NCBI GenBank assembly: GCA_965261595.1
Contig: CBDHDG010000001.1
Coordinates: 96,001 to 160,000, forward strand
DNA length: 64,000 nucleotides
Direction: 5' to 3'
Origin: a bacterium
GTDB lineage: Bacteria > UBA8248 > JACPRG01 > G963555815
Part shown: one piece after another, positions 39,569-57,753 of the stretch
How the letters are laid out: the number at the start of each line of letters is the position of its first letter
How positions within the stretch are numbered: the first letter of the stretch is position 1
Notes under the pieces: generated by a model
Seen by the model: the letters and a program-made list of their open reading frames with translations, nothing else
The model's database searches: none
What the model was told of the DNA's origin: nothing
Translations under genes and position numbers: made by a program

Positions 39569-39778
39569 CGAGGAAACCCCCTCCCTAAAATCTCGACGGA
39601 GCTCGAACGCCCAAACCCGGCCCCCCATCTCAAAAGAAGGGGACTCCCCCCTGTTTTAAACAGGGGATTCGATCCGGCGCGAATCGAAAAACCCTAACAG
39701 TTCGGCTAAAATGAGTCAATTGGAATTATGTCCGGTCCAGCGGATTCAGAACAAACCCCCTCTGAAAGGAGATCTTCC

Positions 39779-40171
39779 ATGCCGAAAAAGCGCGTCAAGA
39801 GTCCCCGCGTCCACGAGCCTCCGGCGAAAACCTTCTCCCAGGCCCTCCGGAAGGGGAATCACCTGTTCATCGCGGGCCAGACCGCGAAGGATCCCAAGGG
39901 AAAGGTCGTCGGCAAAGGGGACGCCATCCGTCAGGCCCGCCAGGTGTTCCGAAGGATTCAGGCCCTGGTCGAGGCGGCGGGCGGAACCCTGCGCGACGTC
40001 TTGAAACTGACCGTCTACATCACCGACATCCGTGACGCCGCCGGCGTCCGAGCCGTGCGAAAAGAGTTTTTCAAAGGGGATTTTCCGACTTCGACCCTTC
40101 TTTGCGTGGCGGCCCTGGCCGACCCCGATTATCTGGTCGAGATTGAAGCCGAGGCGATCTTGGACGATTGA
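39779..40171 (+). CDS. Rid family protein lacking the catalytic Arg
   Basis: FSQA, IAGQ, LKLTVY, PTSTL, LVEIEA. Confidence 0.9.
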   Translation: MPKKRVKSPRVHEPPAKTFSQALRKGNHLFIAGQTAKDPKGKVVGKGDAIRQARQVFRRIQALVEAAGGTLRDVLKLTVYITDIRDAAGVRAVRKEFFKGDFPTSTLLCVAALADPDYLVEIEAEAILDD

Positions 40172-40374: not shown

Positions 40375-40770
40375 ATGGCCAAGAAAGTGCGAATCAAAAG
40401 CCCCAAGGTCGCCGAGCCTCCGCCCCATTCGTGGTCCCCGGCGCTGCGCGTAGGCGACCACGTTTACATCGCCGGACAGGTGGCCGTGAATTCAAAGGGG
40501 AAATCGGTCGGAAGGGCAGACGCCCTCGCCCAGGGGAGACAGGTCTTCAGGAACATCAAGGCCCTCGTCGAGCAGGCCGGCGGGTCGATGGAGGACTTGG
40601 TCAAGATCACCGTCTACCTCACGGATATCCGCCACTCGGAAGGGGTCCGTCAGGCACGGAACGAATTCATCAAAGGGGAGCCGCCGACATCGACCCTTCT
40701 GGTCGTCACGGCCTTGGCCTCGCCGGATTTCCTGGTCGAGATCGACGCCGTAGCCGTCCTGACGGATTAG
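40375..40770 (+). CDS. Rid family protein lacking the catalytic Arg (paralogue)
   Basis: WSPA, IAGQV, VKITVY, PTSTL, LVEIDA; GGAGG RBS. Confidence 0.9.
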   Translation: MAKKVRIKSPKVAEPPPHSWSPALRVGDHVYIAGQVAVNSKGKSVGRADALAQGRQVFRNIKALVEQAGGSMEDLVKITVYLTDIRHSEGVRQARNEFIKGEPPTSTLLVVTALASPDFLVEIDAVAVLTD

Positions 40771-51214: not shown

Positions 51215-51780
51215 GAATCAGGGCCGCACCCGGCGGACCCATCCCGGCGCGCGCTTTGGCCCTTCAACTCAGAAAGCATTCCGTGTATGAATTAGGGCCG
51301 TAACCAGCGGTCCCCATAAGATCATCGGAAATTTTCTGTATTTACTTTAGTCCTTTTTAACCGATATTTTGTATGCCTTGTCTCCGTAAGACAAGGGACC
51401 TCAGGCGACCCTTCGTATTCAGGAAGGAATCGGTCCCACTCACTTATTTTTTTAAGTCATTCATTCCATGATGGTCGACCAATCGAGTTGAAGTCAACCT
51501 TTCGGCCAGTCATTTTCGGAATGTAAACAGTATGTTGATTCTGGCATGATTATCCGAAATCCAAAGATTCGTGAAACCTCCAGGACCTCGCCGTCAGGCT
51601 CTTTTCAGGATGATCCGGAAAGTCCGATGAAAAATGTGGTTTTGGAGGGGAGAGGGGGGCATCCGCCATTCAACGCGGAATCCGACTTCGGCGACACCCC
51701 AAACACGTCTGTCGCGCCCGGGACGCCGCCGGAGATTGAGACATCGGCGGCGCGGCGCCTTTTTCCTTCTGACCCTTGCC

Positions 51781-52680
51781 CTATTTCACGAGGAGATGTC
51801 GAAGGGCCGCCTCCAATTCCGGGTGACGGAACACATAACCCGCGCCTACCAACCGGGCGGGCTCGACACGCGTGCTCGCCAGGAGAAGGGCGTCCGCCAT
51901 CTCACCCAGCGCAAGCCGGGCCGCAAAGGCGGGAAGCGGAAAGATCGTCGGACGGCGGATAACGCGCCCGAGCGTTTTGGTGAATTCCAGATTGACAACC
52001 GGTGAGGGTCCAACAGCGTTCACCGGCCCCCGGAGCGCCTCGGTGATCATCGCGTGGTGGATCGCCCCAACGACATCGTCCAGCGCAATCCAGCTCATGT
52101 ACTGGCCGCCGCCCCCGATCCTGCCGCCCAGGCCCAACCTGAAGGGGAGCAGCATCTTCGCGAGCGCCCCGCCTCGATCGCTCAGGACAATCCCGATCCG
52201 GAGCCTCACGACGCGCATCCCCGCCCGATCCGCCGGCCCGCTCGCCGCTTCCCATTCCCGGCAGACCTCGGCCAGGAATCCCGCGCCGGGGGGGCTTTCC
52301 TCGGTCAGAACCTCATCTCCCCGGTCCCCGTAATAGCCGATCGCGGAAGCGCTCACCAAAACCTCGGGCGGCCGTTCAAGACCGGCCAGGGCTTCGCAAA
52401 GCAGCCGCGCACCCCCCACCCTGCTGCTCCGTATCTTCGCTTTCCGGCCAACCGTCCATCGCCCGCCGGCGATGTTCTCGCCCGCCAGATGGACCACGGC
52501 GTCCAGCCCCTCCAATCCGTCCCGATCCACCTCACCCTTTTCAGGATCCCATCTCACCTCATCACCGTCCGGCTTCGGCCGGGCCCGCACCAGGCGGGTC
52601 ACATGGTGGCCGCCCTCGACCAGAAAAGGGATCAGAGCCGAGCCGATGAGACCGCTCGAACCTGTGATGAGAACCTTCAT
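51781..52680 (-). CDS. NAD-dependent epimerase-family oxidoreductase (TIGR01777/YfcH-like)
   Basis: ITGSSGLIG, HLAGENI, SASAIGYYG, FLAEVCREWE, MSWI. Confidence 0.92.
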   Translation of the reverse strand: MKVLITGSSGLIGSALIPFLVEGGHHVTRLVRARPKPDGDEVRWDPEKGEVDRDGLEGLDAVVHLAGENIAGGRWTVGRKAKIRSSRVGGARLLCEALAGLERPPEVLVSASAIGYYGDRGDEVLTEESPPGAGFLAEVCREWEAASGPADRAGMRVVRLRIGIVLSDRGGALAKMLLPFRLGLGGRIGGGGQYMSWIALDDVVGAIHHAMITEALRGPVNAVGPSPVVNLEFTKTLGRVIRRPTIFPLPAFAARLALGEMADALLLASTRVEPARLVGAGYVFRHPELEAALRHLLVK

Positions 52681-52889
52681 GTCCGGGCCGCCTCACACCT
52701 TTGCGTTAAACGGAAGGTTCAGGACCGTCATCCCGCGTCCGGTTCCGCAATCCCGCGCGCGCGGACGGCGACCGAACCCGCCGCGGAGCGGGTTGTCGTA
52801 GGTTGTCGTAAGATTCAGCCGGGAAACACCCATCCCGCCATTCCCAACCCGGTCTTGCTTTGCGGCCGAACGGGGATCAGCGGGATCGC

Positions 52890-54002
52890 TTACCAAACCC
52901 CGTACATGAAGTCGCGGATGGCCGTGTAGGTCTCCGGGTTCCGGAGGCCCCGCTCGCTGAGGTAGGCGGCCATGATGCGGTTGAAGAAACCGTCGGCGGC
53001 CTGACAAACGTTCATCCCCTTCCCGTTCAAGGTCCGGTGGCCGCTCAACCGGCCGTGGCGCAGGAACACCGTTTCCAGCGGCGCGTAAACGGCGTCGTAG
53101 AACCGGACTTTCGTCGGGATCCGGGCGGACAACTCCGCCGAAAGCTTCTGGTTCTCCGACACATCCTTGCGCGAATCCTTCCACCAAGACGCGTAGAATT
53201 CGTTCTCCCGGCCTTCGGCCGGCCCGGGCGCGGAAGCCGGACGGGCGGGGGAGAGAGCGGAATACGGCTCCAGGCAAGTGGCTTGCCCGTCCGGAAGCTG
53301 CCGGGCGCCCCCCTGCCCTTTGACCGTCGCGTTCGCGATCAGGTCCACCTCCTGTGCGGCCTTCCCCAGATCCTTCTCCGCGATCCCCTCGGCCCGGCCT
53401 CCCGCCTCATTGACAGAGTCGGCCAGGGCCTGGGCGGCCTCCTCCGTCCGGTTGGCGATGTAGAGCGTCCGCCCCTCGGTCGCCTCGTTCAAATAATGGG
53501 CAAGCGCCGCCGCCGCGCCTCCCGCGCCGATCAGGAGCGCGCTTGCGCCTTTGAGATCGGGCAGGAAGGCCTCATTCTCACCCGGCTGGATCTGGGTGAT
53601 GCTATCGATTCCCCCCTGGGCGTCGGTGTTGCACCCGACCAGGCGGCCGTCCGCCTCTCTCACAACGGTGTTCACCGCCCCGATGCGGGCGGCCTTGGGC
53701 TCCACCTCGTCCACCAGGGGGATGATCTTCACCTTGTAAGGGACGGTGACGTTGAATCCCAGCAATTTGGGGTGGGCGCTCAGGGCCTTGAGCAACGCGG
53801 GGAGCCGCGACTCCTCCACATCGAAGGCGACATAGAAGGCGTCGAAATCAAACTTTTTCAGCGTGGGGTTCCAGATGACCGGGCTCTTGGCGTATTGGGA
53901 AGGACGGTCCCCCACGATGCCCACAAACCACGAAACCCCCTCGACCTCTTTCGGAAGCCGGTTGGAAATACAGTCCTGAACCGCATCAAGCTCGCTGACC
54001 AT
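52890..54002 (-). CDS. shikimate dehydrogenase-like protein, atypical
   Basis: NVTVPYK, GAVNT, NTD, GAGGAA, NRT, DAVYAP.ET. Confidence 0.85.
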   Translation of the reverse strand: MVSELDAVQDCISNRLPKEVEGVSWFVGIVGDRPSQYAKSPVIWNPTLKKFDFDAFYVAFDVEESRLPALLKALSAHPKLLGFNVTVPYKVKIIPLVDEVEPKAARIGAVNTVVREADGRLVGCNTDAQGGIDSITQIQPGENEAFLPDLKGASALLIGAGGAAAALAHYLNEATEGRTLYIANRTEEAAQALADSVNEAGGRAEGIAEKDLGKAAQEVDLIANATVKGQGGARQLPDGQATCLEPYSALSPARPASAPGPAEGRENEFYASWWKDSRKDVSENQKLSAELSARIPTKVRFYDAVYAPLETVFLRHGRLSGHRTLNGKGMNVCQAADGFFNRIMAAYLSERGLRNPETYTAIRDFMYGVW

Positions 54003-54073
54003 CGCTCTCTTTCCACGTCCGCGTTCCGGTTTAGTGTCTCCAAAAAATTGACACTTCACAAACCGCAGAGACA

Positions 54074-54151
54074 GCGGGCAAGATGCCCGCCCCACCCGGT
54101 TTGAAAACACCGGCTTTCCGCCATTCGGTAGGCCGGGCATCTTGCCCGGCC
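54074..54151. repeat. pair of oppositely oriented REP-like palindromes
   Basis: GTGGGGCGGGCATCTTGCCCGC (minus strand, 54074-54095) and GTAGGCCGGGCATCTTGCCCGGCC (plus strand, 54128-54151). Confidence 0.7.
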
Positions 54152-54202
54152 GGAAAGGGGCAATTCGGGTCTCGATATGAAAACCATTTTCGAGACACTA
54201 CA

Positions 54203-55075
54203 CTAGAGGGTCTTCCCCACCACCCGCGCGATGCCCCGAAGGTCGCCCATGAGGCCGTCGAACACCTCATAGCTCAGCGCCTGGAGCGGGTCCACCGCGG
54301 CCTTCTCCGGCGTCGGGTGAACTTCCAGGATCAGACCGTCCGCGCCCGCCGCGATTGCGGCCCGGGAGATGGCCGGCACGAACTTCCGGTTGAAGGTCGC
54401 GTGACTCGGATCGATGACGATGGGCAGATGGGAGTAGCTCTGCACGGCCGGGATGGCCTGAATGTCCACGATGAACCGGGCCGTCGGCTCATGCGTATGC
54501 GCGGCCGAAACCCCCCGCTCGCACAGGACGACCTGGTTGTTCCCGTGATGGTAGAGATATTCCGCCGCCCCCAGCCAATCCCGGATGCCGCATCCGAAAT
54601 GCCGCTTGAGAAGGACAGGCTTTCCGCACCGGCCAAGTTCTTCCAACAAGGGAAAGTTCTGCATGTTTCTCGCCCCGACCTGGATCATGTCGGCCGTTTC
54701 GGCCACCTGATCGACGAGGCGGACGTCGACCACCTCGGTCACGAGGGGCAGGCCGGTTTCGTCCCGAACCCGCCGCATGAACGCGAGCCCTTCCTCGCCC
54801 AGCTCGAAGGCGGTCTCGCTCCGGTACGGGAAGGTCATGGGCTTGTAGGCCCCGCCCCGCAGGAGGACGGCCCCGCTGGCTTTGACGTGGCCCGCGATGT
54901 CCCGAAGCTGGTCCAGGTTCTCGATCGTGCAGGGGCCGGCCATGACACAGAGCTTCTCCCCGCCGATCTCGACGTCCCCGACGCGGACGATGCTCGTCTC
55001 CCCCCCCTCCCGCCCGTCGCGCCGGGAGACCAGAGGGAAATTGTTCTCGATATCCTTCGATCCGATGTCCTTCAC
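54203..55075 (-). CDS. type I-beta DAHP synthase-like aldolase, atypical, no regulatory domain
   Basis: MAGPC, RGGAYKP, QVGARNMQNF, LLKR, LCERG, DPSH, LEVH. Confidence 0.9.
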   Translation of the reverse strand: MKDIGSKDIENNFPLVSRRDGREGGETSIVRVGDVEIGGEKLCVMAGPCTIENLDQLRDIAGHVKASGAVLLRGGAYKPMTFPYRSETAFELGEEGLAFMRRVRDETGLPLVTEVVDVRLVDQVAETADMIQVGARNMQNFPLLEELGRCGKPVLLKRHFGCGIRDWLGAAEYLYHHGNNQVVLCERGVSAAHTHEPTARFIVDIQAIPAVQSYSHLPIVIDPSHATFNRKFVPAISRAAIAAGADGLILEVHPTPEKAAVDPLQALSYEVFDGLMGDLRGIARVVGKTL

Positions 55076-55109
55076 AGTCCAACCTCTCTTCCCAAGAATC
55101 GAATCACGC

Positions 55110-56126
55110 CTACAGGGGAACGGCCCGACGCTCGCGGCTGGATTCGTAAACGGCGTCCATGGTCCTGGCCAGATGCACGCCGCTGTTCACCACGCCCGCG
55201 GCGGGCGCCTTGCGGGTCTTGACCGAATCCAGAAAGGCCTCCAGCTCCATGACAACCTGATCCACGGGACTGGCCGTCCCGATCACAGGGGCGTGCCCGC
55301 CCCCGCGCACGGCCGTCCATGTGCCGTCGATCAATTCATGCCGGATCTCGTGAACCGTCAGCTCTTCCACCTCGAAATCGGCGACGATGGTGGCCTTCGT
55401 TCCCATGACCCAGAGGTCCTTGGTGGTCATGGCGTTGGGGACGACCTTTTCGATCCACCGGCCCGGCTGGATGTACCCCGACTCCACCCTCCCGATGGCC
55501 CCGCCCGGGTATTCGAGCACGACCAGGGAGGTGTCCTCGAGGCCGCGGCCGAAGTGGTCCCGGACGACCGAGGTCAGGACGGTCTCCGCCGGACCGAGAA
55601 ACCAGTTGTAGAGATCGAAGAAATGGATGGCGTCCGTGTGGGTGACGCCCACGTCGTTCCGGGCCCGCTTGAACCCCAGGAAGTTTCCGGCGATGTAGCG
55701 GATCTCGCCCAGGGCGCCCGAGTCGATCCGCTCCTTGATGAACCGGGAGATGGGATGAAACCGGTAGTAATACCCCACCTGGAGAATCTTCCCGGTCTTC
55801 TCCACCAGGGATGCGAGCGCCTCGGCTTCCTCCGTCGCGACCGTGATGGGTTTTTCGACAAAAACATCCTTGCCCGCTTCGATGGCCTCGCGGCAGAGGG
55901 GGAAGTGGCTGTCGGATGGAGTCACCACGTCCACGACATCGGCCCCGTCCAGGAATTCCCTGTAGTCGGCCGAGAAGTGATCGGGCGAAATCCCGTACCG
56001 CTTGAGCAGCTCGAAGGCCCCGGGCCTCAGGTCCGCCACGTACAGGGAATCCGCCAAACCCATCCGGGCCCAGGCCTCGATGTGGTTCTTGCCGAACCCG
56101 CCAAGGCCGATCTGCAATACCTTCAA
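55110..56126 (-). CDS. Gfo/Idh/MocA family NAD(P)-dependent oxidoreductase
   Basis: IGLGGFGKNH, TP...H, VEKP, G...RFHP, D.IH..D. Confidence 0.9.
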   Translation of the reverse strand: MKVLQIGLGGFGKNHIEAWARMGLADSLYVADLRPGAFELLKRYGISPDHFSADYREFLDGADVVDVVTPSDSHFPLCREAIEAGKDVFVEKPITVATEEAEALASLVEKTGKILQVGYYYRFHPISRFIKERIDSGALGEIRYIAGNFLGFKRARNDVGVTHTDAIHFFDLYNWFLGPAETVLTSVVRDHFGRGLEDTSLVVLEYPGGAIGRVESGYIQPGRWIEKVVPNAMTTKDLWVMGTKATIVADFEVEELTVHEIRHELIDGTWTAVRGGGHAPVIGTASPVDQVVMELEAFLDSVKTRKAPAAGVVNSGVHLARTMDAVYESSRERRAVPL

Positions 56127-56313
56127 AGAGATGCCCCTATTTCGATGGACAGGTGAGCCGATGGAGTAGGAAACGTCCAAAATTCTAGGGAAGGGACGAA
56201 AGACTGTCAACCCGACGGACCCAAGGCTCAAAATGCCTGATCGGGCATGCGGGTCGTTTGACCCTTCCCGGCGTCTCCGGCTTGGGCGGTGGGATTCCGG
56301 ACGGTTTTCGAAC

Positions 56314-56345
56314 AAAAGAAAAGGGCGGCCCCTTGCCGCCCTTTT
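56314..56345 (-). terminator. intrinsic terminator of the tRNA operon
   Basis: aaaagggcggc-ccctt-gccgccctttt. Confidence 0.8.
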
Positions 56346-56365
56346 CCACTCAACCATAAAATTTC

Positions 56366-56442
56366 TGGCGGGGTTGACGGGACTTGAACCCGCGACCTCT
56401 GGCTTGACAGGCCAGCGTTCTAACCAACTGAACTACAACCCC
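56366..56442 (-). tRNA. tRNA-Asp(GTC)
   Basis: GGGGTTGTAGTTCAGTTGGTTAGAACGCTGGCCTGTCAAGCCAGAGGTCGCGGGTTCAAGTCCCGTCAACCCCGCCA folds as a cloverleaf with encoded CCA. Confidence 0.97.
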
Positions 56443-56466
56443 GTAGTAGTCATTTTCCATTTTGGG

Positions 56467-56539
56467 TGGGCGGAACAGGGCTCGAACCTGTGACCTCCGG
56501 CTTGTAAGGCCGGCGCTCTTCCAGCTGAGCTATCCGCCC
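56467..56539 (-). tRNA. tRNA-Val(TAC)
   Basis: GGGCGGATAGCTCAGCTGGAAGAGCGCCGGCCTTACAAGCCGGAGGTCACAGGTTCGAGCCCTGTTCCGCCCA folds as a cloverleaf. Confidence 0.96.
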
Positions 56540-56557
56540 CGTCCCCGCAGCCCTCAC

Positions 56558-56587
56558 AATATATGACCACGGCGGAAATCCCGTCAA
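56558..56587 (-). promoter_or_regulatory. sigma70-like promoter of the tRNA operon
   Basis: TTGACG-N18-TATATT about 20 nt upstream of tRNA-Val. Confidence 0.55.
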
Positions 56588-56724
56588 GCTGATTTGTCCT
56601 CGCTTCCGTCCCCGGGCGCCCGGGTCACCTCGCATCATCCATGAATGGACGCCAGGGGTTCAACCCATTAAACTTGGTCCTCTGTGATTCGATCCGCTCG
56701 TTCTTCGCTCCGGACACCCGATTG

Positions 56725-57753
56725 ATGACGAAAAAATCGCTTCCATTCAGTCCGCGCGGATCCGCCGTCTTCTTTTTGATTGCCGTCTTCGGCCTCGCCG
56801 CGTATTTCCCGGCGGCCTCCCGGGCGGCCGGACGGGTTCAGGTCGCCCTGGGGCCGTCCGTAACGACGGACATGATCGCCCGGCGCCTGCGCGATTCGGG
56901 AATCCTGAAGAAATGGGGAGCGGAAGCCGGTGTGGACTTTGAGATGAAGACCACCCTCAACGCCAACCTCCGTATCGCTAAAAACCAGTCGCAGATCGTC
57001 CTGATGAGCACCATCGACATCGCCCGCTTGGTGGTGGATGACGGGTTGGAGCTGGTGATCTGGGGAAAGGATTCCACGTCGTATGAGGGCTTGTACGCGA
57101 AGGCCGGCCGGCCGGGGGAGTCGCCGGGCGATTTCAAGGGCAAGAGACTCGTCCATCCGGGCTGGAATACGCGCGCGACGAGGATTGGAAAGGTCATTCT
57201 GGCCGCGCTCTCGGGGGTGGATGCCGAAACCGATTTCGAGATCGTGACGGCCCCCTGGCGCATCGGCCCCGAGAAACTCATCGAGGACGAGGCCGATATC
57301 GCCATCAACGCCATGCCGTTCGTTTTGAAATCCCTGCTCAAGAAGAAGCTCCGGGGCGTGGGCAAGAGTTTTGCGCGTGACTGGGCCGACAGGCGGGGAG
57401 GCGGCCGGCGGCTCGGCGGGTTGTTCTGGAGCGCCTGGCAGGGCTGGCTCGATCGGGAAACGCCCAAGGCCCGCGCCCTGTTGGCCGCCTGGGCCGAGGG
57501 GATGTCGTACGCCCATCAACAAACACAGGAATGGGCGCAAAAATATCTACCCGGATCCCTGCGCGGCGCGACGCCGGAGGACATCGAATATTTCGTTCGC
57601 TGGTTCCAGGAAGAACAACCCGTCTACAAGACCCCTTACCTTTCCGCCCGGGATGTCGAGGACGAAACGGCCTTTCTGAAACTCGCGGTGCGGCAGAAAC
57701 TCGTACGAGCGCTGCCGAAAAATTCCATTTGGCGGGTGATCCGCCCTCGATAA
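56725..57753 (+). CDS. ABC substrate-binding protein, SsuA/NMT1-like
   Basis: Signal peptide; SPGDFKGKRL, EDEADIAI, A.ALLAAW..G. Confidence 0.75.
   Translation: MTKKSLPFSPRGSAVFFLIAVFGLAAYFPAASRAAGRVQVALGPSVTTDMIARRLRDSGILKKWGAEAGVDFEMKTTLNANLRIAKNQSQIVLMSTIDIARLVVDDGLELVIWGKDSTSYEGLYAKAGRPGESPGDFKGKRLVHPGWNTRATRIGKVILAALSGVDAETDFEIVTAPWRIGPEKLIEDEADIAINAMPFVLKSLLKKKLRGVGKSFARDWADRRGGGRRLGGLFWSAWQGWLDRETPKARALLAAWAEGMSYAHQQTQEWAQKYLPGSLRGATPEDIEYFVRWFQEEQPVYKTPYLSARDVEDETAFLKLAVRQKLVRALPKNSIWRVIRPR

Follow-up and report, generated by a model that had tools for sequence, protein, structure and literature searches.

Here we describe three genes, co-oriented on the minus strand at positions 52890..56126 of a 64,000-nucleotide window (C1:96001-160000) of a bacterial genome of 7 contigs and 6.17 Mb, which on balance are probably the sugar-acid-forming half of a conserved cassette for a 3-deoxy-2-ulosonic acid that would be activated with cytidine monophosphate (CMP), in the manner of 3-deoxy-D-manno-octulosonic acid (Kdo) or sialic acid, and destined for a surface glycan. 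The genes encode an oxidoreductase of the Gfo/Idh/MocA family, hereafter Gfo (55110..56126; 338 aa, TTG start; PF01408, PF02894 and PF22725), a phosphoenolpyruvate (PEP)-condensing synthase resembling type Iβ 3-deoxy-D-arabino-heptulosonic acid 7-phosphate (DAHP) synthases (54203..55075; 290 aa, GTG start, without a regulatory domain; PF00793 at 196 bits) and an oxidoreductase of the AroE family of shikimate and quinate dehydrogenases (52890..54002; 370 aa, ATG start in an open reading frame (ORF) that opens at 54140; PF08501 and PF01488). The arrangement of the three co-oriented genes given in a preliminary description of this stretch is thereby confirmed, and a third-position GC content of 0.81-0.87 in the trio frames favours the minus strand over the long overlapping plus-strand ORFs of this GC-rich DNA.

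The two aro homologues of the trio are paralogues of canonical genes of the aromatic pathway. A search of the genome for canonical aroF and aroE genes found both elsewhere, so neither homologue in the trio is the only copy. Three genes carry the DAHP_synth_1 domain, namely a canonical DAHP synthase at C6:413855 (338 aa, with an N-terminal regulatory domain and the motif GGAFKPRTSPY), a KDO8P synthase with the motif KANRS that is ~33% identical to the window synthase, and the window gene itself. Of the two AroE-family genes the canonical one, at C6:970337, has HSLSP and the window one has YAKSP, a stretch which we take to be the Ser-x-Ser substrate loop of AroE. The genes aroB and aroQ lie on C6 and aroC on C2; the scanned flanks of the trio (~36.7-63.5 kb of the window) hold neither aro genes, among them the aroB/D/K/A/C whose absence had been remarked upon, nor glycan genes, and no aro gene adjoins the synthase in the related loci that we examined.

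The altered substrate-binding motifs reported for both aro homologues are borne out, and in the synthase the change is a property of a whole clade. The window synthase reads GGAYKPMTFPYR where the canonical DAHP synthase of the genome reads GGAFKPRTSPYS, such that KPMTFPYR replaces KPRTSPY and Met80 takes the position of an Arg that binds erythrose 4-phosphate (E4P). The residues that serve as metal ligands (Cys, His, Glu, Asp) and PEP ligands (Arg/Lys), roles transferred by alignment from PMC6362186, are retained, with C49, H225, D262, R73, K78, R136, K157 and R187 invariant in the alignment with the canonical enzyme and E or D at position 251. According to that paper E4P is bound by the R and T of KPRT in the Thermotoga maritima enzyme, and the metagenomic type Iβ DAHP synthase it describes has a canonical KPRT, for which reason we rejected it as a member of the clade. 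The window synthase passes two NCBIfam cut-offs for DAHP synthases (NF006421, 345 vs 335; TIGR01361, 303 vs 268). It thus has the domain, the score and the metal- and PEP-binding residues of a DAHP synthase and lacks the KPRT Arg, the aro context and the role of a sole or regulated copy.

Many proteins of ~287 aa, 61-98% identical to the window synthase, came out of a protein search, and wherever they are named the annotation is '3-deoxy-7-phosphoheptulonate synthase'. A scan of genome contigs matched 241 stretches, 166 of which encoded a synthase relative, and the best 80 were kept. The titles of these records include Acidobacteriota, Gemmatimonadota, Chloroflexota, Planctomycetota, Omnitrophota, Nitrospiraceae, Syntrophobacteraceae, Acidimicrobiia, Methylomirabilota, Pelagibacteraceae, SAR116, Rhodospirillaceae, Azospirillum, Denitromonas and Prochlorococcus single-cell genomes. 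A hidden Markov model (HMM) of the clade scored 458-553 bits on the 80 loci against 283-304 on 20 canonical DAHP synthase genes, and 454 bits on the window synthase against 286 on the canonical enzyme of the same genome. In a tree rooted on KDO8P synthases the 81 clade tips were monophyletic with a support of 0.995. All 81 have the motif KP[LM][TS]F, with Leu or Met at the position of the E4P-binding Arg, whereas KPRTS with its Arg was present in 19/20 canonical controls. The clade motif is followed by a nearly invariant Arg (FPYR) and a 3-residue insert, and clade members also share a helix-turn-helix (HTH) insert and the specific stretches RDWLGAAEY and AAVDPLQAL. We also searched for longer forms of the synthase and rejected as clade fusions the 120 proteins listed (521-680 aa, ~49-55% identical), since the prephenate-dehydratase and/or ACT domains in nearly all of them mark them as canonical DAHP synthase fusions; no clade-level fusion of synthase and cytidylyltransferase was among them, although such long proteins crowd the search and make this weak evidence. 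A separate paralogue with KPTTYPVKF in place of KPRTSPY occurs alone in two small genomes of the same family that lack the trio (G005:C1, L112 6998-7867, with a like copy at G002:C2:13983-14792), beside housekeeping genes (PCMT, FtsJ, 1-deoxy-D-xylulose 5-phosphate synthase) and no glycan partners.

The trio is conserved well beyond the genome in which it was noticed. Among 41 related genomes five, all of the same family, have a copy of the window synthase at 77-100% identity, and the trio is syntenic in 4/4 of the relatives examined that hold the paralogue. For the wider survey the ORFs of the 80 loci were clustered and the 25 commonest clusters examined, with a Pfam scan of 13 representatives and an inspection by eye of the others. 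Greedy picking of the longest ORFs took wrong-strand frames in GC-rich loci, and the counts were redone with HMMs on six-frame translations. In all 80 loci the Gfo gene was found in 64, the AroE-like gene in 67, the full trio in 58, a cytidylyltransferase of the CTP_transf_3 family (CTP3) in 57, a family 2 glycosyltransferase (GT2) in 53, all five genes in 46 and a NeuB homologue in 19. In the 47 loci that extend 5 kb or more to either side the counts were Gfo 41, AroE-like 43, trio 41, CTP3 43, GT2 39, all five 36 and NeuB 13, and around 20 canonical DAHP synthase controls none of Gfo, AroE-like, CTP3, GT2 or NeuB was found, the lone AroE-like match scoring 158 bits under a threshold of 200. 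The Gfo matches lay on the strand of the synthase in 64/64 cases and the AroE-like matches in 66/67, with median gaps of a few bases. The linkage of the trio, which extends over many phyla, is more than chance. A PEP-dependent synthase linked to CTP_transf_3 and glycosyltransferase genes is the pattern by which we would recognise a CMP-ulosonic-acid pathway, and with 43/47 and 39/47 full-flank loci the clade displays it.

Among the common neighbours in the 80 loci were, besides the trio partners, cytidylyltransferases, NeuB and a GT2 to which a second CTP_transf_3 domain is often joined, also epimerase/dehydratases, DegT aminotransferases, AsnB-like amidotransferases, methyltransferases and radical-SAM proteins, and this set is what makes up a glycan or nonulosonic-acid island. 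Among these conserved neighbours we recognised no phosphatase or isomerase. In low-GC genomes the genes run CTP3, GT2-CTP3, Gfo, synthase, AroE-like, and in two further loci (L043 and L046) the order is Gfo, synthase, AroE-like, NeuB, GT2, CTP3, CTP3. The full five-gene cassette is also present in a cultured strain, Denitromonas iodatirespirans IR-12, which makes its function directly testable. In the literature that we covered, which largely excluded subscription journals, no description of the clade or the cassette was found.

These neighbours bear on the possibility that the trio is an unregulated DAHP synthase isozyme with a quinate/shikimate-type dehydrogenase and a Gfo enzyme, feeding a secondary shikimate pathway or one leading to a cyclitol or to a product like 3-amino-5-hydroxybenzoic acid (AHBA). 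Such a role would be in keeping with the synthase scores above the DAHP synthase cut-offs, with the unregulated type Iβ DAHP synthases that are its nearest solved relatives (for example 1vs1 at E 7.8e-80) and with the catalytic Lys/Asp kept in the AroE-like enzyme. Clusters for AHBA have a type II amino-DAHP synthase, an amino-3-dehydroquinate (amino-DHQ) synthase, an amino-DHQ dehydratase and an AHBA synthase; neither the scanned flanks nor the 25 commonest neighbour clusters yielded a recognisable DHQ-synthase-like cyclase, dehydratase or AHBA synthase, and the aminoshikimate analogy drawn in the preliminary description is not supported. The conserved partners are instead cytidylyltransferases and GT2 enzymes, which shikimate, AHBA and cyclitol pathways do not need, and the E4P-binding Arg is lost in every one of the 81 clade members. 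Cyclisation of the DHQ synthase type needs the elimination of phosphate, and therefore a product without phosphate could not cyclise in this way. Taken together we regard a secondary shikimate, AHBA-like or cyclitol pathway as the least probable of the explanations considered here. The proposal of a separate PEP-aldol pathway acting on a substrate other than E4P fits the replacement of the Arg that binds the E4P phosphate throughout the clade and has partial support as an interpretation; of the two products that had been put forward, an unusual ulosonic acid agrees with the linkage to CTP_transf_3, GT2 and often NeuB genes, whereas for a cyclitol no cyclase-type genes were recognised.

To view the cassette from another of its members we ran a metagenome search anchored on the GT2, in which the best 80 of 474 relatives were kept. 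Twenty of these had full flanks, and of them 18 had CTP3 genes, 12 the clade synthase, 10 the trio and 8 NeuB; four had both synthases and four had neither. Sister subclades of DAHP synthase-like proteins, scoring 337-351 bits on the clade HMM and reading either KPCTFPYRF or KPLTFPYG with an insert of ~30 aa, were seen on metagenome contigs (L137 6086-6937; L147, L160, L162 and L174), where they adjoin GT2 and CTP3 genes but have neither Gfo nor AroE-like genes beside them. From these counts and the sister subclades it follows that the stable core is a PEP-condensing synthase with one or more cytidylyltransferases and the GT2, and that the Gfo/AroE-like pair tracks the main synthase clade.

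In the genome of the window this cassette is split. A whole-genome HMM search found exactly one clade-level copy of each part, the partners of the trio being unlinked to it on C6, where NeuB, the GT2 and two CTP3 genes lie at C6:324145-327671 in the order of the colinear loci; the window trio and the C6 block together give the gene order of L043 and L046. The block is surrounded (L102, G000 C6:316001-336000) by a cluster resembling those for lipopolysaccharide (LPS) or O-antigen, with a WaaA-like gene (Glycos_transf_N), a Wzy_C O-antigen-ligase-like gene, a gene for a MurJ-like flippase, a PMT_2 (ArnT-like) gene, two GT1s, an epimerase, an AsnB-like gene and a DUF3090 protein. The WaaA-like homologue of Kdo transferases scores 187 bits, under all cut-offs. 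The block of NeuB, GT2 and two CTP3 genes is found in 7/7 genomes of the family and the trio in 5/7, hence the block can exist without the trio. As to the two cytidylyltransferases, the first has a NeuA-like VIPARGGSKG loop, and the second (L102 8142-8882, G000 C6) reads LVPVQGKPLYRK and scores 48 bits with Pfam against 75 for the first; a second CTP_transf_3 domain is likewise the one fused behind the GT2 in SAR11-type loci. The second cytidylyltransferase may act on another substrate or be non-catalytic.

The setting of the GT2 also speaks to whether the product is a glycan constituent at all, as the GT2 could instead attach the sugar acid or its CMP ester to a small acceptor in a soluble pathway, with a compatible solute or a cofactor-like glycoside as examples of what might be made. 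The GT2 has its best NCBIfam matches, all far under cut-off, among small-molecule transferases (MftF, the TIGR04283 family and glucosyl-3-phosphoglycerate synthase), its stand-alone ORFs are short (213-227 aa) and the window trio sits among ordinary metabolic genes. Set against this, the GT2 of this genome is placed within the cluster of O-antigen-ligase-like, MurJ-like, WaaA-like, PMT_2 and GT1 genes, and at other loci the neighbours are those of glycan islands, with NeuB, DegT, epimerases and AsnB-like amidotransferases. A soluble small-molecule pathway appears unlikely to us, though it is the strongest of the alternatives.

The recurrence of NeuB raises a further question as to whether the trio acts upstream of it, making an unusual precursor that NeuB would extend with a second PEP to a higher-carbon sugar acid, activated by one of the cytidylyltransferases. 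NeuB directly follows the AroE-like gene in the colinear L043 and L046 and in L144, and the single clade-level NeuB of this genome adjoins GT2 and CTP3 genes. It is nevertheless within 7 kb in just 13/47 full-flank loci, most of the SAR11-type cassettes (CTP3, GT2-CTP3, Gfo, synthase, AroE-like) have no adjacent NeuB, and the NeuB block occurs without the trio in G002 and G005. Moreover a 2-keto-3-deoxy acid is not an aldose, and a route through NeuB would need extra steps, none of which we see. We consider such a relay through NeuB improbable.

With respect to the two oxidoreductases, no NCBIfam equivalog or characterised subfamily reaches its cut-off on the Gfo enzyme, which has the N-terminal Rossmann domain, the C-terminal α/β domain and the EKP motif of its family (E91-K92-P93, invariant) together with a glycine-rich turn and, at the end of β2, an Asp. 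Of the two Gfo subtypes seen at this place in the cassette it belongs to the first ('type A'), and it is 50-85% identical to the neighbour upstream of the synthase in 15 other loci. The AroE-like protein scores 161 bits with TIGR00507, under the cut-off of 200, and keeps K90, N125-T126-D127 and the N184-R185 of an NRT motif, K90 and D127 being invariant; its substrate loop is A[RK]SP throughout the clade in place of HSxSP. A structure model of the protein (predicted local distance difference test, pLDDT, 91.8) has a two-domain fold that matches the structures of AroE, YdiB and quinate dehydrogenase, with matches in the PDB to shikimate, quinate and 5-ketofructose reductases at 22-28% identity, and a clade-specific insert of ~65 aa is structured in the model, with a long helix at residues 266-294. 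We assume that the Asp at the end of β2 marks a preference for NAD and the NRT motif a preference for NADP, and from these motifs the Gfo enzyme is read as NAD-type and the AroE-like enzyme as NADP-type. A predicted complex of the two scored 0.00, which has no bearing on whether they associate. In 4 loci (L026, L030, L031 and L035) they are fused in a single protein (L035 4097-6289, 730 aa), the Gfo part of which is of the SAR11-like subtype.

A pathway can be sketched from these features. In the first step the DAHP synthase-like enzyme, which keeps its metal and PEP sites, would join PEP to a non-phosphorylated aldose and so form a 3-deoxy-2-ulosonic acid; that the aldose would lack the phosphate at the end of E4P is suggested by the exchange of the Arg and Ser of KPRTS for Leu/Met and Phe. 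In its pyranose form such an acid would resemble quinate with a ring oxygen, that is an oxa-analogue, and for this reason an oxidation by Gfo and a reduction by the AroE-like enzyme are proposed as the following steps: Gfo, with its NAD-type fingerprint, would oxidise a ring hydroxyl of the synthase product, and the AroE-like enzyme, NADP-type and with its catalytic Lys/Asp kept, would reduce the ketone from the other face. The net outcome would be an epimerisation, or else a keto handle for the aminotransferases and methyltransferases found in some loci; this part of the scheme is speculative and we rate it as doubtful. In a fourth step a NeuA/PseF-like cytidylyltransferase would form the CMP-sugar and the conserved GT2 would transfer it, the genes for which in this genome would be those on C6, in the LPS/O-antigen-like cluster with the NeuB homologue.

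A number of points weigh against this assignment as a pathway for a CMP-activated ulosonic acid. The synthase still exceeds the two DAHP synthase cut-offs given above and keeps the Thr and Asp that also contact E4P, and R85, the nearly invariant Arg five residues past the lost one, could bind a phosphate or a carboxylate. No enzyme that would form the aldose substrate was identified, and no cytidylyltransferase or glycosyltransferase adjoining the trio was found in the scanned flanks of its own genome. The independence of the NeuB-GT2-CTP3-CTP3 block from the trio weakens a strict one-pathway view. Two unrelated-looking Gfo subtypes share the one slot, the window Gfo being ~15-28% identical to that of the SAR11 type, and to our knowledge it would be unusual for a GT2 to use a CMP-sugar. 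The HMM thresholds were chosen after the bimodal score distributions had been seen, and the genomes counted are related to one another, with many SAR11 single-cell genomes among them, so that the independence of the counts is overstated.

It is conceivable, and we put it forward tentatively at somewhat less than even chances, that the product belongs to a new class of ulosonic acid, neither Kdo nor a nonulosonic acid of the NeuB type, in which a DAHP synthase-derived enzyme uses a non-phosphorylated aldose (possibly with a deoxy or hydrophobic end), the NAD+/NADPH pair of Gfo and AroE-like enzymes inverts one stereocentre of an oxa-quinate-like sugar, and the result is an abundant but so far overlooked surface sugar of ocean and soil bacteria. 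The last of these follows, if true, from the records of SAR11, SAR116, Prochlorococcus, Acidobacteriota, Planctomycetota and Chloroflexota that hold the cassette. If the cassette does serve a CMP-activated ulosonic acid, a third enzyme lineage for activated keto-acid sugars would stand beside KdsA and NeuB, and the AroE fold would have been recruited to carbohydrate tailoring. By their record titles some of the carriers are very abundant marine groups, in which surface sugars matter for phage recognition and grazing. Annotation pipelines label the cassette genes '3-deoxy-7-phosphoheptulonate synthase' and 'shikimate dehydrogenase', and as a result metabolic reconstructions miscount the capacity for aromatic amino acids and the putative glycan pathway is overlooked. 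What this window adds is the split arrangement, with a stand-alone trio that has a putative promoter of its own, the relation to NeuB, the counts anchored on the GT2, the sister subclades and the cultured carrier IR-12.

Upstream of the trio, on the same strand (56317..56539), lie tRNA-Val(tac) at 56465-56539 and tRNA-Asp(gtc) at 56366-56442, followed by a terminator hairpin with a T-run at 56317-56347, the one convincing result of a terminator scan in which the number of sites was no higher than in shuffles. Between this terminator and the Gfo start is a sigma-70-like site, TTGACA-17-TAGAAT (56182..56210, minus strand), which agrees with the hexamers at 11/12 positions and is the putative promoter of the trio on its consensus match alone; the search found 4 promoter-like sites against 0.6 in shuffles. 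With the tRNA pair, the terminator and the near-consensus promoter upstream of it, the trio looks like its own transcription unit. An Rfam scan of 51500-56800 passed the two tRNAs and no riboswitch or leader. Marine metatranscriptome contigs from four libraries (151-345 nt) match each of the three genes in part, at 95-100%, and three of these contigs span the Gfo/synthase junction. They are a weak hint at transcription of the trio, given that carry-over of DNA is possible, and stretches that they leave uncovered do not count as silent.

The synthase and AroE-like genes are separated by a spacer of 200 nt (54003..54202) which holds a copy of a dispersed repeat of ~130-175 nt with a long predicted hairpin, this copy having a predicted fold of -90 kcal/mol. 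The repeat gave 80 blastn rows in the genome across the contigs shown, and the relatives G003, G004 and G006 lack a copy in the trio, with just 25-34 nt there. In the C6 block another copy (G000 C6:325647-325810) separates the GT2 from the first cytidylyltransferase.

Downstream, after a gap of 209 nt, the next gene on the minus strand (51781..52680) encodes an epimerase-like protein of the TIGR01777/YfcH family. We rejected it as a fourth member of the cassette on account of this gap and of its presence after the trio in just 3/4 of the family loci; it is absent among the labelled conserved neighbours of the 80 loci, outside the window's own family, and is probably not part of the cassette. 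The other flanking genes are ordinary and include those for an M23 peptidase, a response regulator, an NMT1-like binding protein, a thiolase and β-oxidation enzymes. Elsewhere in the window two adjacent RidA/L-PSP family genes (39728-40171 and 40375-40770), unrelated to the trio, lie beside ABC-transporter and CoA-transferase/ATP-grasp genes.

In comparison with known systems, the window synthase is of the same family as the unregulated type Iβ DAHP synthases (Aeropyrum pernix 1vs1, Pyrococcus furiosus 1zco/4c1k and the catalytic domain of T. maritima 1rzm) at ~45-50% identity, and like them it keeps the metal- and PEP-ligand residues and has no regulatory domain. Unlike them, the clade has KP[LM][TS]F, the 3-residue insert and the HTH insert, and is linked to cytidylyltransferase and GT2 rather than aro genes. 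AHBA clusters employ a type II synthase whereas that of the window is type Iβ, and the other AHBA enzymes were unrecognised in the regions scanned. The logic of the CMP-Kdo pathway (KdsA, KdsC, KdsB, WaaA) is closer, with a DAHP_synth_1-family enzyme for the condensation of PEP and an aldose, a CTP_transf_3 enzyme for CMP activation and a final transfer to a glycan; the cassette differs in a synthase just ~33% identical to the KDO8P synthase of this genome and without KANRS, two extra oxidoreductases, no recognised phosphatase or isomerase, a cytidylyltransferase nearer to PseF/NeuA than to KdsB and a transferase of the GT2 family. With the nonulosonic-acid pathways (NeuB/PseI/LegI and NeuA/PseF/LegF) the cassette shares a likely non-phosphorylated aldose and a NeuA/PseF-like cytidylyltransferase, and its loci resemble the islands of these pathways in having DegT, AsnB-like and epimerase genes and often a co-located NeuB homologue, but its condensing enzyme is of the DAHP synthase family and not of the NeuB family, and no partner attains an NCBIfam equivalog cut-off (for PseF 137 vs 206, for NeuB 222 vs 400). 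The AroE-like enzyme has the fold of the shikimate/quinate dehydrogenase family, including 5-ketofructose reductase (7cok), with a template modelling (TM) score to target of ~0.8, the catalytic Lys/Asp pair and an NRT-type motif; it differs from shikimate and quinate dehydrogenases in its A[RK]SP loop, where the Ser-x-Ser is lacking, in the ~65-aa insert with its helix and in a score under the AroE equivalog cut-off. As a sugar ketoreductase of the AroE family, 5-ketofructose reductase provides a precedent for the role that the AroE-like enzyme would have in the cassette.

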